A stretch of DNA of 35,378 bases from an uncultured archaeon (GCA_964632315.1 CAZWEM010000042.1:1389-36766); one strand, 5' to 3'; positions 27,714 to 35,222 are shown, counted from the stretch's first letter. Translations and numbers: made by a program. The notes: generated by a model from the letters alone, not told the origin.

Positions 27714-28856
27714 TTAAATTTGCTTTTTTAACAACATTTTACCCATCATTTTCATCGTCCCAAGGAATCCCCGTTTCTTGATCATGATCTTTTGTAATAG
27801 TGCGTCGAAATCTTTTGGAGGCACCATTTCTTTTTCCTTCTTTTCGAGCGTGATTGCCGTTGACGGGCAGGTAACCACGCAATTTCCGCACCCTATACAT
27901 CTATCATAATCTATCGTGGCAACATTACTGACAAGCGATACAGCATCCATCTGGCATCGTTCAGTGCAGGTACCGCATCCTTCGCATATATCTGCATCCA
28001 CTATCACATGGAAGTTTGATGCAAAATAATCAGCGGGACGAGGGAATTGTTTTACCATAAGTAAATTTTGACAGCAATCCCCACAACATGCACAAATAAA
28101 CCCGGAGTCTTGTGAATTATTCGGTTGAAGCACCAATCCAAGCTCTTGATATTTCTTCAAGCGTTCCATTGCTTCACTTTTGGTGACCTTACGACCAGAA
28201 CCCAATTCTAAAAAGCCAGCTCCCAAATTGCCAAATCCCATACAAGTATCGGGTATATCTGTAACGCTACACGATCCTCCCAATACTCTTTTTTCTTGTT
28301 TGCAGACACAGTTCAGTATTACAATTGGTTCCTCAGCATTTTCCAAAAGTTTACTCACATCATCATAAGTACTGATATGATGTTCTGGTACTACGGCTTT
28401 CTCAACTGGAATTGTTCGCATTTGAGGGGGAACATTTGGCTTAAAGAATTCTTTATAAAATACGGATTTATTGTATTCTTCAGCAACTTCAGCTAATTCT
28501 ATATTAAGCTTATCCACTTGAAACTCAAACATGCCAATCGCATACTGAGCCGTGCTATATGTTTTTTTGTCGGGATCATTAAAACTTCCTCCCATGATTA
28601 ATCCTCTTTTCACTAAAGAATCTAATTGTTGCTCTAATTCTTCCAGTGTTATCCCAGTATGTTTAATACGCTTGTAAATACGTTCAATTGGTTCTGGTAA
28701 GGCACTCAAATATAATACTAAATTCGCTTCCTCCGGAGTGAATAAATGCTTTAAAATTCGTATTTCAGCACCAGATTCACTCCTTGGGAAGCCTACAGGC
28801 ATACGCTCGTCGATATGCTGCTGTAGTTTTCTATATACACCATTGGTTTCGCCCAT
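27714..28856 (-). CDS. 4Fe-4S binding protein (N-terminal HTH-like region, Cys-rich core, C-terminal 2x[4Fe-4S] ferredoxin)
   Basis: GMFEFQ, NCVCK, ICACCGDCC, CEGCGTCTERCQ, CIGCGNCVVTCP. Confidence 0.88.
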   Translation of the reverse strand: MGETNGVYRKLQQHIDERMPVGFPRSESGAEIRILKHLFTPEEANLVLYLSALPEPIERIYKRIKHTGITLEELEQQLDSLVKRGLIMGGSFNDPDKKTYSTAQYAIGMFEFQVDKLNIELAEVAEEYNKSVFYKEFFKPNVPPQMRTIPVEKAVVPEHHISTYDDVSKLLENAEEPIVILNCVCKQEKRVLGGSCSVTDIPDTCMGFGNLGAGFLELGSGRKVTKSEAMERLKKYQELGLVLQPNNSQDSGFICACCGDCCQNLLMVKQFPRPADYFASNFHVIVDADICEGCGTCTERCQMDAVSLVSNVATIDYDRCIGCGNCVVTCPSTAITLEKKEKEMVPPKDFDALLQKIMIKKRGFLGTMKMMGKMLLKKQI

Positions 28857-28939
28857 TTTCTCTTACCCTGCTTTTAGTTTTTTTTACTCTCATTAATATT
28901 TCTTTATTTGACAATTTTTATTTGTTCGAATATATAATC

Positions 28940-28985
28940 CTACTTTCAATAGTCTCATGAAAGTCCCAAGATATGTGAAAGTAAA
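28940..28985. repeat. Composite inverted-repeat element, copy 1 (cTACTTTCA-N27-TGAAAGTAaa)
   Basis: Arms at 28941-28948 and 28976-28983; internal TGAAAGT at 28958-28964; homologous to 30612-30657. Confidence 0.7.
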
Positions 28986-29418
28986 ATTTTTGAGAGTTTT
29001 GAATATAAATTATCACTATTAGATTTTTTCATTTGATTTTTATTAGGTTTTCCGTATCGGTTCGTGTGATTCTAGAGTAATTCAATATATCCAATTAAGA
29101 CTCAAGAATAATGGATCTTTCACGATTCGGATCATTTAAAAAAATAGAAACCATTAATATTTAAATATTTCGATACTAGTCGAATAATAAAATTGAAACC
29201 TTCAACAAATCAATTATAAAATCATGACAAAAATATAGATTTATGTAAATCGATTCGATAGATATAAATAGAGTAATATAAAAGCAATAATATCATAAGA
29301 ATAATTGGTTTTTTATTGTTCGTATTGTTATAAATACTTATAACCTTAAATTGACTCTATTAACATAAATAACGAGAAATAAATTTGACATTCATAAAAT
29401 TATTTAAAGGTGGCTGAT

Positions 29419-30108
29419 ATGGAAGAAAATCAAATTACACCGACAATTGATGTTTCATTTTGGAAAAATGATATTCGCTATCGAATATGGGGATTATTAA
29501 CGGTTTATCATGAATTAAGTTTTACTCAATTAGCAAAAAAGTTAGGAAAGTCAAAATCTACAATACACCCGCATTTACAGGAAATGATTAAGCTTGGAGT
29601 TGTTGAAATTTCTAAAAAAAAGCATGTTAGGGCCAATATAGAAGCCCATTATTATTCGCTAACTCCTAATGCGGCGGATATACTCTCACTTGCTGGTTTC
29701 GATACTTCGCGAGGATACGATAAGGAATTAATTAAAAAAATTGCTACCTCCAATAAATCTTTAGCAACCTATAATAAAAAGATCTTGGATAAACAGATCA
29801 GATTCTTTGAATATTTAGAAGAAACTGACTCGGATGATATCGTAGAAATCTACACTAAAATTTATAAAACAATAAATCGCACAAAAAATGATATGAGTCA
29901 TGTTTTTATGGGCCAATTCTTTCTCACAGAGGATCAATGGAAGAGATGGCAAAAAATGTATTTTAAATTAATCATGGAGTTTGAAGCAGAGTGTGTCAAA
30001 GAGCAAAAGGAACACCCTAATCAAGAAAAATACATTTATTGGTTTTCCATGGGTATACCTGTGAAAATTCTATTTGAAGAAATTGAATCAAAAGATTATA
30101 AAGAATAG
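29419..30108 (+). CDS. ArsR/winged-helix transcriptional regulator
   Basis: 'RYRIWGLL...ELSFTQLAKKLGKSKSTIHPHLQEM..LGVV...HYYSLT'; ATG at 29419 behind GGTGG SD preferred to GTG at 29410. Confidence 0.85.
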   Translation: MEENQITPTIDVSFWKNDIRYRIWGLLTVYHELSFTQLAKKLGKSKSTIHPHLQEMIKLGVVEISKKKHVRANIEAHYYSLTPNAADILSLAGFDTSRGYDKELIKKIATSNKSLATYNKKILDKQIRFFEYLEETDSDDIVEIYTKIYKTINRTKNDMSHVFMGQFFLTEDQWKRWQKMYFKLIMEFEAECVKEQKEHPNQEKYIYWFSMGIPVKILFEEIESKDYKE

Positions 30109-30157
30109 AGAATAAAAAAAAAGAGTTTAGCTTATATAAGCCAATTTGATTTAGTTC

Positions 30158-30535
30158 TTATTTGTGTTGGATGTATATGTAAATAAAAACTGTTACTTGT
30201 ACGATCCATATAATCGTGTTGACCCAAACAATAGGATGGGTGGGAAGGCCAAAGTGGATATATAACATTGCTAGAATTTCTAATAGAATCCATACAATTT
30301 GCTGGAGAACAACCATTTTCACGCATTCCCATTCCTTTTTCCTGTATGCCAGTAAGTTAAGGAAAGAATAACCTAAAAGAGCTACTCCAAATAGCCGTGG
30401 AATTCCTGGATCAGAATAAGGCCAATAGAGTATGTCTAAAAATATGTCCAAAAGAAAGATAAATGTCAATCCAAAGAACAATTGCAAGAGAAAGGAAAAA
30501 AAGAACCAATATTGTGTCAATTTTTCGATATTCAT
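30158..30535 (-). CDS. Small membrane protein, about 4 TMs, function unknown
   Basis: 125 aa, four hydrophobic segments, 'WPYSDP..PRLFG'; GAGG SD upstream. Confidence 0.75.
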   Translation of the reverse strand: MNIEKLTQYWFFFSFLLQLFFGLTFIFLLDIFLDILYWPYSDPGIPRLFGVALLGYSFLNLLAYRKKEWECVKMVVLQQIVWILLEILAMLYIHFGLPTHPIVWVNTIIWIVQVTVFIYIYIQHK

Positions 30536-30611
30536 TTAATTTCAACCTCTTTTTAATTAGATTTTTTTAAATTTTTGTTAAATAAAATTCGATTTTTCCG
30601 ATTATTTAGTT

Positions 30612-30657
30612 CTACTTTCATAAGTACTATGGAACTCCCATACATTCTGAAAGTAAA
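30612..30657. repeat. Composite inverted-repeat element, copy 2 (cTACTTTCA-N27-TGAAAGTAaa)
   Basis: Arms at 30613-30620 and 30648-30655; same 27-nt spacing and conserved core ATG(A/G)AA(G/C)TCCCA as copy 1. Confidence 0.7.
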
Positions 30658-30712
30658 GTTATTATACTAGATGGACTTTATGATTTCTTGATTAAAAAAA
30701 ATCACTACAAAT

Positions 30713-32617
30713 ATGGAAAAAATTAATTTCCCTTCTCAAGAAATCCTCAATCCTCGAAAATTAGCAAAAAAGAATTATGAGCATATAATTCTCTGGATGT
30801 TATATAACAATGAGGGATGTGAGTGGGCTAATTTCTCTAAGGAACCAATGAGTATACCCGAGGCTACACTTTCAAGATATTTAGGCATTCTAAATAAGAA
30901 AAGATTCATAGAAAAAGTGTCTCGAGGATATTATCAAATTACTCCAGAGGGGAAAAAAAGATTTCATGAATTATCCAAATATAAAGGAAAACGACGAAAA
31001 CTAAATTATCCTCCAAAAGTTATTTTAAAGAGTGGCAGAGATTACGATAAGTGGATTCTCTGGATGGTGTATAACAATGAATATTGTCGAAGGTCTGATT
31101 TCATAAAGGAACCCTTATCTATTAATCAGAATGCTTTGTCCAAAAACCTTAGATATCTTATTGAGAGCAAGTTTATCCTAAAAACTGATAATCTATATAA
31201 AATTACTCAATCAGGCAAGATAGAGTATTCCAAAATGCTACATGACTATGCCCTAGATCGGCAGACCATTTTAGAAGAGGAAAGTAAGCGTATTGATGAA
31301 ATTACTTTAAAAACCACTGAATTTTTTGAGGAATATAAAGTTAATGATAAAGAAGTTAAATTTCGCTTCTTAAACAAGGTATTAAGGTTGGATTATTCAA
31401 AAGTGAAAACTATATTAACGAATGAGTACGATTTTTATAAAATTCTATTATTCATATCAATAAATCATCCAGATTTTTATCCAAACTACCTCTCTCTCGA
31501 GAAATTTTCAAATCTATACCTAATTAAGAGAAAAATTCTTGATTATTGGATAGATGAAATCTTAACGGGAAAAATTTTTGATCTGAAATTACATCGGTTA
31601 GAAGTACCTCCAGATAAATATTATTATTTCGAAGCAAATCAAAAATTGGAAAAGATGCTTCGAGCAATTTCTACAGATCATATCACTAAGAGCAAGTATT
31701 TACAAAAATTTGGGTATTATAATGAGCATGAATTATTGCTTGAAAACATTATAAATGAGAGTTGTGAAGGTTTATTTCATGAGGATTTAATCGAATCTTT
31801 AAGAGAATTTTTACCAGGATATATCAGATATCTAGCATATAAAATTGAAACAAAGAAAAGATTAATGAATACTTATGATAAATTAGAGGGAATCATTTGG
31901 CAGGATATGGAAAGTATCGTTTATTCGCAAGGTTCTGTAACATTAGAAGACCAATATCAAGAAATATTGAAGGAAACTGAGAGAGTCATTGCTTTAGATC
32001 CACTTGATGATGATCCATATAATGAAAAAGTAAGAATTCTCATTTATTATAACCAATACACGAAAGTACTAGAATTTTTGGATGAAATGATCCAATTATT
32101 CCCTGAAAAGGAAATCAGCTTACAAATGAAAAAAGCATCTATTCTAAAAATGAAGAAAGATGTTAAGGGAGGGATGAATATCATAGAGAAGTTAATCAAG
32201 AAGCACCCAGAGAATCCCGATCTTCTGAATTATAAATCATTTTGGTTAAAGTATTTGGGGAAAAAAAAAGAAGCAATACAGATTATCCAACAACTAATAG
32301 AAGATAATCCTAAAAATGCTCTCTACTACGACACATTAGGAGAAATATTATTATATTTTGAGGATTTTAAGCAGGCTTCAACAAAATTCTTAAAAGTGAT
32401 TCTCTTAGATAAAGACAGTTGGTTTATTTATCAAACATATATTAAATTAGCAAGCTGTTATCTTGCATTAGAAGAGCACGATTTAGCAGAGAAAAATCTC
32501 AAGATGGGAACAAAATTAATACACGAAAAAATAAAAGATGTTGAAACAAAACAAAATTGGTTAACAATTGCCAATCTATTACGTGCCGATATGATGGAAC
32601 AAAGAAATGAGCTTTGA
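30713..32617 (+). CDS. Tandem winged-helix (x2) + C-terminal TPR protein, putative regulator
   Basis: Two ~65-aa repeats 'ILWM.YNNE.C....F..EP.SI....LS..L..L....FI.K....Y.IT..GK'; C-terminal TPRs ('NPKNALYYDTLGEIL'). Confidence 0.8.
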   Translation: MEKINFPSQEILNPRKLAKKNYEHIILWMLYNNEGCEWANFSKEPMSIPEATLSRYLGILNKKRFIEKVSRGYYQITPEGKKRFHELSKYKGKRRKLNYPPKVILKSGRDYDKWILWMVYNNEYCRRSDFIKEPLSINQNALSKNLRYLIESKFILKTDNLYKITQSGKIEYSKMLHDYALDRQTILEEESKRIDEITLKTTEFFEEYKVNDKEVKFRFLNKVLRLDYSKVKTILTNEYDFYKILLFISINHPDFYPNYLSLEKFSNLYLIKRKILDYWIDEILTGKIFDLKLHRLEVPPDKYYYFEANQKLEKMLRAISTDHITKSKYLQKFGYYNEHELLLENIINESCEGLFHEDLIESLREFLPGYIRYLAYKIETKKRLMNTYDKLEGIIWQDMESIVYSQGSVTLEDQYQEILKETERVIALDPLDDDPYNEKVRILIYYNQYTKVLEFLDEMIQLFPEKEISLQMKKASILKMKKDVKGGMNIIEKLIKKHPENPDLLNYKSFWLKYLGKKKEAIQIIQQLIEDNPKNALYYDTLGEILLYFEDFKQASTKFLKVILLDKDSWFIYQTYIKLASCYLALEEHDLAEKNLKMGTKLIHEKIKDVETKQNWLTIANLLRADMMEQRNEL

Positions 32618-32641: not shown

Positions 32642-33175
32642 TTAAGAGTGGTGATATAATTTTACAATAAGATCATTAAAAGCATCAGTAACTCCTTGTC
32701 CTGTCTTAGCAGAGGTAAGGTAATAGTTAGGTATGTTCAAATCATCAAGGATTCGTTGGATTTTTGGTGTATCCAACTTATCTTCATCGATTAAATCGAT
32801 TTTGTTCGCAAAAAGGACAACCGGAATATTTCCACATCGATTTCTAAGTTCATTATACCAATCTGCTATATGGGAAAAACTTTCAGTTCCTAATTCATTT
32901 TCTTCAACACTATAGACAATTATACAGGCGTTACTCTCTTTATAAAATAAAGAGCTGAGAAAATCAAAACTGCTTTGGCCAGCAATATCCCAAAATATTA
33001 AGCTTATTTCATCTCCATCAACTTTTTTTTGTATTTTGGTAAACTGAGCTCCAATAGTTTTAATATAGTCTTCTTTAAAATTACCGTGGGTAAATTTCTT
33101 AATTAAAGAGGTTTTTCCTACTCCTCCATCCCCAATGACTACAATTTTGAATTTAAAAATTTGAGTACCATTCAT
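32642..33175 (-). CDS. Rab-like small GTPase (Ras superfamily)
   Basis: G1 GDGGVGKT, G2 KTIG, G3 WDIAGQ, G4 NKID, G5 TSAK; no C-terminal CaaX/CC tail. Confidence 0.95.
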   Translation of the reverse strand: MNGTQIFKFKIVVIGDGGVGKTSLIKKFTHGNFKEDYIKTIGAQFTKIQKKVDGDEISLIFWDIAGQSSFDFLSSLFYKESNACIIVYSVEENELGTESFSHIADWYNELRNRCGNIPVVLFANKIDLIDEDKLDTPKIQRILDDLNIPNYYLTSAKTGQGVTDAFNDLIVKLYHHS

Positions 33176-33302: not shown

Positions 33303-35222
33303 TTATTCATTGAGAAAAATCTGAGTTATAAGAGAGTTAAGATTAGGTAAATCTTCAAGTTTAATCATTTGGTTTGCTATTTGATATTCATTAAATTTAT
33401 TCATCAAATCTTGATTCATTTCTAATCTTTCAATAAAGTGCTCGAGACGTTTTTGAGCAAAGAATGATTGTCCCTTAAAGATATAACATGCTAAAAATCT
33501 TGAAATTGGCTTCATTATTAAGGTAAACTCACCAAAGGAAGCCCGATCAAGCCCTTCAGAAAAGAGTTCACCGCTAAACGTGTTAAAAGCAGATAAAAAG
33601 CCACTAATTAGATCATCTTCAACCATAAATGTGTCAGCAAACAAGTTAGAGAACGTGGGAGTGCCTCCTTCAGATATTAATAAAATCATAATAGGATCTT
33701 CTTCTTTTATTTCTGAGGGCCCATTTCTACGTTTTTGAATCATAATATTTATCTGATCATCAATATTACTTAACTTCAATCGATCAGATAGTGATGATTC
33801 TGATTCTTTTAAATTCTCCCACAAATCTAATTTCTGAAGTAGATCGTCATGCTCACTTGAGATTTTTCTCACTAGAGGGTCAAAACCATAACTTTCAGCA
33901 ATATTCTGGGCTTTAGTTAACAATTGGCGAGCGTTTTTAATATCTAATGTTAATAGTGCTAATTCTGCTTGCAAAACATACGTTTCAGCATAATACCAAT
34001 AACTGTGCGACTTTTCTGTTAAATTCAATAATTGATTAATTAAGGGCTGTATCTCCTCGAGAATCTCTTTTTCACCCGTAATTTTAAGCTCATCAATTAG
34101 TAGATCGCATAACTGAATCAATCCCTCTATTTTAATATCAAAAACAACATCTTTATCTTCAATTAATGATCTAAACAAGTTCTCTGCTTTAGCACGATGT
34201 TGAATTCTAGGGCTCTTCTTGAGAATAAGAGCTTCGGTGTACTTATAATCCCGATTAATATAGGGGGTTTTTTCTATATCGCGCAATTGTTTTACTCTTT
34301 CTAAATGTTCCTTAGCTTTATTAATGTCACCTTTAATGAGTAAAACCTCCACCATGGTCACGTGATATCCTACTTTCATCCAATTATTTTTTAATGGTTC
34401 TGAAAAATCAATACATTTAGTTAATAATTCTACAGCTTCATCTAAATTTCCTTGTGCTCGATATACACCCGCCATATTATTCATAGTACCTAAATAGGAA
34501 CTTAAATCATTAGTTTTCTCGAAATATGCTAACGCTGACTTGTTATGTGATAAAGATTTTTCTAATTCTCCCTTAACATGATAAATATGACCTAAATAAA
34601 CATTAGCTTTAGCTAATAGCCGTTGATATTTTATTTGGTTGGCAATTTTAAGACATTGTTCTATATAATAAAAAGCTTTATCGAGATCCACCTCTACAAG
34701 GCGATAAAAATTGGACAATCCAAGAAGTGATTCAGCAATATCTCGTTTATTACCTATATTTTCACGTAATTCTAAACTCTTTTGAAAATATTTTAAAGAA
34801 TCCTTCTCGTGACCTTGATAAAAAGAAAGGAATCCTTTAATATAAGCCGTGTAAGCATCAATTTCAAGCTTAGCTTCAGGTCCAATAGAAAGCAGTTTAT
34901 ATATTTCTTCACTTGTTTCTAGTAATTTAGAACTCTTCCCTAAATCACCTATTATGATTGAAGAATTAGCCATATTTAGGAGTGCATTCATTGAATTTAG
35001 GTAATCTTTAGATCCTTTAGCTTTGTGATAAGCTTCCTCAGCAATTTTAAAAGCTTTTTCTGAATCTCCCAATCTAATAAGTAGGTTGCTTGCTAAAATT
35101 TCTTCTGATATTGATAATTTAGGGTTTTCAACTAATCTGTTTAAAAGAGGAATTGCTTCAAAATCTTTGCCCTCATTTAAAAGAGTCTCTGCCATATTTA
35201 AATCTTTATCTACACTAAACAT
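33303..35222 (-). CDS. TPR-repeat protein with C-terminal longin/roadblock-like domain
   Basis: Multiple TPRs ('SLKYFQKSLELRENIGNKRDIAESL'); C-terminal 'ILLISEGG.P.FS....DDLISGFLSAFNTFSGELF..GLDRASFGEFTLIM' alpha/beta longin-like segment. Confidence 0.8.
   Translation of the reverse strand: MFSVDKDLNMAETLLNEGKDFEAIPLLNRLVENPKLSISEEILASNLLIRLGDSEKAFKIAEEAYHKAKGSKDYLNSMNALLNMANSSIIIGDLGKSSKLLETSEEIYKLLSIGPEAKLEIDAYTAYIKGFLSFYQGHEKDSLKYFQKSLELRENIGNKRDIAESLLGLSNFYRLVEVDLDKAFYYIEQCLKIANQIKYQRLLAKANVYLGHIYHVKGELEKSLSHNKSALAYFEKTNDLSSYLGTMNNMAGVYRAQGNLDEAVELLTKCIDFSEPLKNNWMKVGYHVTMVEVLLIKGDINKAKEHLERVKQLRDIEKTPYINRDYKYTEALILKKSPRIQHRAKAENLFRSLIEDKDVVFDIKIEGLIQLCDLLIDELKITGEKEILEEIQPLINQLLNLTEKSHSYWYYAETYVLQAELALLTLDIKNARQLLTKAQNIAESYGFDPLVRKISSEHDDLLQKLDLWENLKESESSLSDRLKLSNIDDQINIMIQKRRNGPSEIKEEDPIMILLISEGGTPTFSNLFADTFMVEDDLISGFLSAFNTFSGELFSEGLDRASFGEFTLIMKPISRFLACYIFKGQSFFAQKRLEHFIERLEMNQDLMNKFNEYQIANQMIKLEDLPNLNSLITQIFLNE

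Follow-up and report, generated by a model that had tools for sequence, protein, structure and literature searches.

What is the function of a 43-nucleotide (nt) element that is found twice, in the same orientation, around two genes of an archaeal contig? The element was noticed in a DNA stretch of 35,378 nt from an uncultured archaeon (GCA_964632315.1 CAZWEM010000042.1:1389-36766), here called the window, which corresponds to G000:C42:1389-36766 in our set of genomes. The source genome, G000, measures 4.45 Mb and has a G+C content of 33%. Positions are counted from the first nucleotide of the window, and the two copies are denominated E1 (28941-28983) and E2 (30613-30655). The element is probably an operator array, bound by the large regulator encoded next to E2 and controlling both of the divergent promoters between which it is found. 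A second copy would have been co-opted by a gene encoding an iron-sulphur (Fe-S) protein.

Sequence and geometry of the element pair

E1 and E2, both given here on the plus strand, start with TACTTTCA and end with TGAAAGTA, and the two 8-bp arms are separated by 27 nt. Arms and spacing are matched without mismatches in both copies, which are 1672 bp apart. Sequences and coordinates read as originally reported, at 28940-28985 and 30612-30657 when the flanking residues are included. Spacers agree at 14/27 positions upon recounting (the probability of 14 or more is 0.007 at the observed base composition). Overall, E1 and E2 are identical at 30/43 positions and differ at 13. No other exact match to TACTTTCA-N27-TGAAAGTA is found in the 4.45-Mb G000 genome, and the expectation calculated from the observed 8-mer frequency is 0.008 genome-wide. 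Matches to the pattern carrying two mismatches occur at the control rate (10 vs 8 in controls), and the half-site 7-mer, present in 1131 copies, is not over-represented. A 7-mer or 8-mer motif marking a genome-wide regulon was discarded, as word counts are those due to chance and further pairs of sites were not found in G000, whatever the spacing. A multi-copy repeat was similarly discarded, as blastn-short searches of the G000 genome with the E1 and E2 units returned only these units themselves. The pair is real and local, and is not a genome-wide repeat.

Each of the two putative operator arrays is made of three boxes. In E1 these are box 1 (TACTTTCA, 28941-28948), box 2 (ATGAAAGTCCCA, 28957-28968) and box 3 (TGAAAGTA, 28976-28983); in E2 boxes 1 and 3 are located at 30613-30620 and 30648-30655, and box 2, ATGGAACTCCCA, at 30629-30640. 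The element had been parsed in the original prediction as two overlapping dyads. The perfect 8-nt arms are retained: one is box 1, the other the left half of box 3. The second dyad, AGTCCCA-N7-TGAAAGT, is weak and unsupported, and the comparison of the whole family described below led to the three boxes, the first inverted and the other two direct.

Both copies are indeed found about 80 bp upstream of minus-strand genes. E1 is 84 nt from the start, at 28856, of the Fe-S protein gene (27714-28856), and E2 is 77 nt from the start, at 30535, of a gene for a 125-amino acid (aa) hydrophobic, plausibly membrane, protein (30158-30535). The regulator gene, located on the plus strand (30713-32617), is the divergent partner of the latter. 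The TATA-like boxes noticed at the flanks are also genuine, and are kept in relatives. The box of E1, TTCGAATATATAATC (28925-28939, minus strand), faces the Fe-S gene and is identical at 15/15 positions to the box found left of the element in the related genome G016 and in the metagenome contig Ga0180433. The box of E2, TTATTATA (30659-30666, plus strand), faces the regulator gene and is kept in G016 and in a second relative, G035; other members of the subfamily feature ATATAAATAG at about the same alignment position. Left of E2, a degenerate region, TCCGATTATTTAGTTC (30596-30611, minus strand), aligns to the TTCGAATATATAATC box of G016, G035 and E1, but has diverged. The leftward box, TATA(-), is located 2 nt left of box 1, the rightward box, TATA(+), 3-12 nt right of box 3, and both are conserved. 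E1 retains the left TATA box, which is the same as in G016, the right one being lost; in E2 the right box is retained and the left has diverged. Judging from these alignments, each copy has kept the TATA half that faces its gene, the other half being left to decay.

A conserved promoter unit and its family-wide form

A genus set of 42 genomes was searched by the element pattern, which was found in only two other genomes, G016 and G035. In both, the element is located about 60-65 nt upstream of the orthologue, 70% identical, of the 634-aa regulator, and has on the other side the 125-aa gene, the products of which are 79-84% identical. E2 is the positional orthologue of this single element, which it matches at 38/43 positions in G016 and 34/43 in G035 (79-88%). 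Third codon positions of the regulator gene are 59-60% identical in the same comparisons, below the identity of E2, which is therefore conserved above the neutral rate at orthologous positions (38/43 vs 59% for G016). Aligned units from G000, G016 and G035 feature, in order, the TATA(-) box TTCGAATATATAATC, the 43-nt element and the TATA(+) box TTATTATA. By its organization, the E2 unit is a predicted bidirectional archaeal promoter, in which the element is placed between divergent TATA boxes facing the 125-aa gene and the regulator gene.

The comparison was extended to the 220-nt regions upstream of orthologues and of paralogues at about 50-57% identity. Twenty subfamily genes from 18 genomes of the genus, close relatives included, were aligned by MAFFT. 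The three-box array and both TATA boxes are found upstream of all 20 genes, and fit the consensus CTTcCgATAnTTcCAtGgAAgTTCCGAA-N6-TGGAAGTT. Box 1, (A/G)(C/G)TT(T/C)C(G/A)A, is followed by a spacer, roughly TAGTYTC, by box 2, ATGRAARTTCCGA, by 6-7 nt, and by box 3, RTGGAAGTT; the array is flanked on the right by a strongly conserved ATATAAATAG TATA, and on the left by a TTTATAGTT-type TATA. Boxes 1 and 2 are separated by the same distance throughout the family, and a difference of 1 nt is seen in the spacing of boxes 2 and 3. In most clades the latter two boxes read as GGAANTTCC palindromes, in the clade of G000 as GGAAGTCCC and GAAAGTA. The element shared by E1 and E2 is, on the evidence of the alignment, the G000-clade form of a family-wide array of GGAAGT/TTCC boxes, which precedes every examined gene of the subfamily in the genus. 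Most of the other clades (L028-L040) also feature a second conserved palindrome, ATCATC-N4-6-GATGAT, in the stretch from the array to the divergent gene, some 45 nt to the left of TATA(-); this is not found in the G000 clade.

A position weight matrix (PWM) derived from the family alignment identified three strong sites in G000, located upstream of a regulator paralogue on contig C9 (44.5 bits), at E1 (39.8 bits) and at E2 (30.3 bits). The best control score was 15.9 bits, and E1 was absent from the training set. A test of enrichment upstream of wHTH-TPR (winged helix-turn-helix, tetratricopeptide repeat) paralogues had been suggested in the original prediction. A degenerate family pattern gave 16 matches in the 42 genomes, against 3 for the control, and 13 of the 16 are directly upstream of regulator genes.

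The C9 paralogue, 637 aa long and 51% identical to the regulator, has its own variant of the array, AGTTCCAATACTTTCATAAATGTTCCAAG...CGGAAGTTCC (G000:C9:23633-23812; L091 4634-4813), 66 nt from the start of a divergent gene for a 1065-aa LVIVD/Big_13 surface protein. Two weaker arrays of G000 have no adjacent regulator gene. One (G000:C9:20315-20361; 15.9 bits, the value of the best control) is found just beyond the 3' end of the surface-protein gene. In the other (G000:C33:26084-26129; 21.1 bits), located 110 nt upstream of a gene for a 496-aa leucine-rich repeat (LRR) protein, there is a perfect palindrome of 13 nt, GTTCCAAGTATTA/TAATACTTGGAAC. A match at G000:C13:82065 falls in coding sequence and was dismissed as fortuitous. 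Four of eight pattern matches in metagenomes, two of them labelled human gut, were also taken as chance, being found in GC-richer contigs with flanks unlike the module.

Additional copies of the array

The Fe-S protein gene, the putative target of E1, encodes 380 aa and features a C-terminal 2x[4Fe-4S] ferredoxin domain, identified by matches to Pfam Fer4 families and to ferredoxin domains in PDB. The N-terminal 250 aa or so match no Pfam family, and a CCGDCC motif is found in the protein. This belongs to a very large paralogous family, of which G000 has at least 8 members and the 42 genomes give over 250 matches. The closest orthologue among the genomes, 86% identical, is found in the sister genome G036, along with an orthologue (74%) of the ArsR/IclR-like wHTH protein of 229 aa encoded between E1 and E2 (29419-30108, plus strand; Pfam matches). 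The region upstream of the G036 Fe-S gene is homologous to that of G000 on both sides, and is devoid of a segment of about 105 nt holding TATA(-) and E1. The segment falls in the interval 28892-29018, where two placements, 28892-28997 and about 28915-29018, are equally good; its distance from the Fe-S gene, which it precedes, is 35-60 nt. At its junctions an inverted repeat of 7 nt, ACTCTCA/TGAGAGT, is present. G036 has no close orthologue of the regulator (the best is 53% identical), and no element of the G000 subtype.

E1 is also carried by the metagenome contig Ga0180433_10039963 (L122), which encodes an Fe-S protein 88% identical to that of G000. The two elements match at 38/43 positions. 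From box 2 through TATA(-) 46/47 nt are identical, vs 62% identity at third codon positions. Box 3 is decayed to TGGGAGTA, changes are concentrated in this box and in spacer 2, and the DNA to the right is unrelated. By this measure E1 is under strong purifying selection. E1 matches the intergenic region separating membrane-protein and regulator genes in G016 and G035 at 35/43 positions and in the flanking TATA box, and this resemblance points to E1 having been copied from that locus.

A 132-aa membrane-protein gene of the same contig (L122 4093-4491) ends 47 nt right of E1. Its product resembles by eye a 135-aa protein of genome G005 described below, and small membrane-protein genes recur beside array units. 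G035 retains only a C-terminal fragment of the ArsR-like protein (residues 64-226, with 2 stops; G035:C13, L046 7094-7585), overlapping a fragment of 33 codons from the 3' end of the Fe-S gene. The deletion took away the Fe-S promoter region, with any E1 there.

G005, a metagenome-assembled genome labelled Promethearchaeota, hosts two extra arrays of the G000 subtype, TACTTCCAATA(G/C)TTTCATGGAAGTTCCA. Both are preceded on the left by a TATA box and are found about 108 nt upstream of genes unrelated to each other, encoding a Kre9-type Ig-like protein in one case and a 135-aa membrane protein in the other. Module-free versions of the region upstream of the 135-aa gene are found in G008 and G034. 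The array is thus polymorphic for presence or absence at two loci, the Fe-S gene (G000 vs G036) and the 135-aa gene (G005 vs G008 and G034), and its copies are two in G000 and three in G005. On the right of the extra G005 copies neither a regulator gene nor a remnant of one is present, and no such remnant was detected on the right of E1 (tblastn and blastn). The 135-aa gene has a paralogue in G005 (G005:C168 and G005:C187; L127/L133), one of the two being at a contig end. The encoded proteins are 80% identical and the 75 nt upstream are identical, which suggests that the promoter unit has recently spread or undergone gene conversion.

The candidate regulator and alternative readings

The regulator encoded next to E2 matches Pfam HTH_45, HTH_34 and TPR families and the NCBIfam Sso10a-type wHTH. 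The chain opens with two tandem wHTH, continues with a coiled helix and one more wHTH-like fold, and ends with a TPR domain, the families of which cover residues 410-630 approximately. In the AlphaFold model (mean pLDDT, predicted local distance difference test, 75) residues 213-307, after the coiled helix, are folded as four helices and a beta hairpin in a winged-helix-like arrangement, and the chain may therefore carry three wHTH units. The gene contains an internal DNA repeat of 89 codons.

That the element is the operator of this adjacent protein had been put forward in the original prediction, and fits all the comparative evidence: the element is kept upstream of orthologues, is found in diverged form across the subfamily, and has been added in the Fe-S promoter, where it is strongly conserved in a second lineage. 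Binding is the predicted part of the claim. The adjacent 634-aa protein is the parsimonious and most likely candidate, because the array travels with the regulator family whatever the other neighbours, because extra copies match the variant of the resident regulator, and because the G000 clade has residues of its own in both putative recognition helices. These read TLSRYL and INQN(A/S)LSK in the clade, T(L/I)(S/A)RH(L/M/I/F) and I(N/S)QSSLSK in the other aligned members. The split in helix residues coincides with the split in operator subtype; being a single evolutionary event, the coincidence is only suggestive. The ArsR-like protein is an unlikely binder. In G036 its orthologue is present in a genome that lacks the element; in G035 the element is intact and the ArsR-like gene is a pseudogene.

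At the home position, E2, TATA(-), boxes 1 to 3 and TATA(+) would form two archaeal core promoters set back to back, one driving the gene for the small membrane protein to the left, the other the regulator gene to the right. The regulator would bind the array in its own promoter, and would control in this way both its own gene and the divergent one. The TFB recognition element (BRE) is normally located beside the TATA box. The outer boxes of the array are beside the TATA boxes, at the BRE position, and their occupancy should therefore change the recruitment of TFB and TBP. E1 would be a second copy of the left half of the unit, TATA(-) plus array, brought in with the extra segment of about 105 nt; as it sits upstream of the Fe-S gene, the same control is proposed for the latter.

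Several observations weigh against this interpretation. Regulator and operator are linked by co-location and co-conservation, and the array is missing at two more distant paralogues of the regulator in G000 (C14, C37). The mean identity of array columns is just 0.63, vs about 0.5 in the flanks, in the alignment of 20 sequences, some of them from close relatives. The outer boxes overlap the expected position of the BRE, and the core promoter could account for part of the conservation. As to the history of E1, the regions upstream of the Fe-S gene in the outgroups G005 and G008 are unrelated, and E1 may have been gained in the G000 lineage or deleted in G036.

The array could be a cis-regulatory site, or a special core promoter, read by another factor, either a different transcription factor or a TFB paralogue using the outer boxes as extended BREs. 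The distance of these boxes from the TATA boxes, 2-12 nt, is in keeping with such a role; moreover, the half-site core and the putative recognition helices vary little across paralogues, and one shared factor could read all arrays. We consider this unlikely. Box 2, the best-conserved part, is about 15-25 nt from either TATA, outside any core promoter. TGAAAGTAAA is not a general promoter word, its 72 copies in G000 being roughly twice the number due to chance by a hand estimate. The motif is confined to the promoters of one gene family and to a few added copies, and these carry the very variant of the resident regulator. A different proposal is that TATA and array make up a small mobile or copy-prone promoter cassette, similar to a miniature inverted-repeat transposable element (MITE), and that its spread, rather than regulatory selection, explains the second copy. 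The insertion polymorphism at two loci, the inverted repeat at the E1 junctions and the identical 75-nt upstreams of the G005 paralogues, one of which is at a contig end, are all of the kind expected. The proposal is nonetheless improbable, as genomes host just 2-3 copies, no other E1 unit was found by blastn in G000, clear target-site duplications are missing, the boundaries of the unit vary between loci, and E1 is under strong purifying selection. It would be compatible with an operator function, and is not an alternative to it.

The copies were also suspected, in the original prediction, to be att/dif-like recombination sites bounding a 1672-bp cassette that carries the ArsR and membrane-protein genes. 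Direct repeats do flank the two genes, and the single element of relatives is like E1 on the left and like E2 on the right. Still, this single site adjoins the membrane-protein gene in G016 and G035, and is therefore the equivalent of E2, not an empty site; hybrid or empty-cassette alleles were not found in the relatives. G036 lacks E1 yet keeps the ArsR gene, and part of the region was lost in G035 by an unrelated deletion. Tyrosine recombinases (PF00589) were matched only on contigs C56 and C116, no recombinase was found on C42, and the enclosed genes encode a wHTH and a membrane protein. An identical core is missing, only the two 8-nt arms being identical in elements that match at 30/43 positions. 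We regard recombination sites as very improbable. Hardly more credit, and in our judgement slightly less, is due to a structured RNA, or to a micro-peptide starting at the ATG of box 2. Hairpins fold with z-scores of -2.2 to -4.1, and short open reading frames (ORFs) do open at this ATG in every copy of the G000 subtype. No Rfam match was obtained, the fold score is a trivial consequence of the inverted arms, and the element is upstream of both flanking TATA boxes. The micro-ORFs (28957-29022 and 30629-30670) were discarded, as the ATG is replaced by ACG, GCG or TCA in many family members and the frames are upstream of TATA(+); their length ranges from 9 to more than 30 codons, and differences among copies are mainly at first codon positions, which is not codon-like. 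Origin-recognition boxes (ORBs), which have cores that we take to resemble the TTCC..GGAA dyads, were rejected as well, given that arrays occur several times in a genome, always ahead of a regulator paralogue, and that orc1/cdc6 genes are not among their neighbours.

An operator array bound by the adjacent regulator, the interpretation that we favour, has parallels in known systems. One is the autoregulated transcription factor with an operator in the intergenic region that it shares with a divergent gene, along with the archaeal activating or repressing sites located upstream, beside BRE and TATA box, as for the Ptr2, Lrp-type and TrmB-type regulators. There, too, repeated or dyad half-sites are directly upstream of TATA, before the own gene and a divergent target, and extra sites make up a small regulon. 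The family described here differs in that the protein, 634 aa long, combines 2-3 wHTH with TPR, and in that three boxes are spread over 43 nt and two promoters. The HTH-TPR regulators of Bacillota known as RRNPP (PlcR, NprR, Rgg, PrgX) are similar in having a DNA-binding N-terminus followed by a TPR sensor; they too are autoregulated through palindromic boxes, and a conserved box is found upstream of their own and regulon genes. In contrast, the N-terminus is here a tandem winged helix (HTH_45, HTH_34, Sso10a) and the XRE-type HTH/HTH_3 that defines the RRNPP regulators was not found by Pfam and NCBIfam, and the host is an archaeon with TATA/BRE promoters. No conserved micro-ORF or peptide gene is found at the locus between the element and the flanking genes. 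Foldseek searches with the full-length model of the regulator returned generic TPR proteins only, and no published description of this regulator family or of its operator was found in the literature.

A regulator that controls its own gene, and has a few further copies of its operator, follows an ordinary principle. Knowledge of gene regulation in Asgard archaea is, however, very limited. The boxes of the predicted operators, and the geometry of their promoters, are defined here at the base level. The regulators concerned form an abundant family in one Loki-type genus of Asgard archaea, and their genes are usually beside those for Rab-like GTPases and TPR-longin proteins. In the window, the regulator gene is followed by genes for a Ras/Rab-like GTPase (32642-33175) and a TPR protein (33303-35222), both on the minus strand. 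E1 and E2 are concrete probes, and the Fe-S and membrane-protein genes are predicted targets. The Fe-S promoter would represent one case in which a regulon has grown because a promoter-operator unit was inserted, the unoccupied allele being preserved in a sister species. More tentatively, and with some doubt on our part, the TATA-plus-operator unit (about 65-190 nt) might be a portable promoter cassette of the Asgard-specific wHTH-TPR family, repeatedly copied before unrelated Fe-S, membrane, Ig-like and LRR genes. If so, a sensor encoded next to genes for Rab-like GTPases and TPR-longin proteins would enlarge its regulon by having its own bidirectional promoter copied and pasted, and an Asgard small-GTPase module would have a direct transcriptional output.

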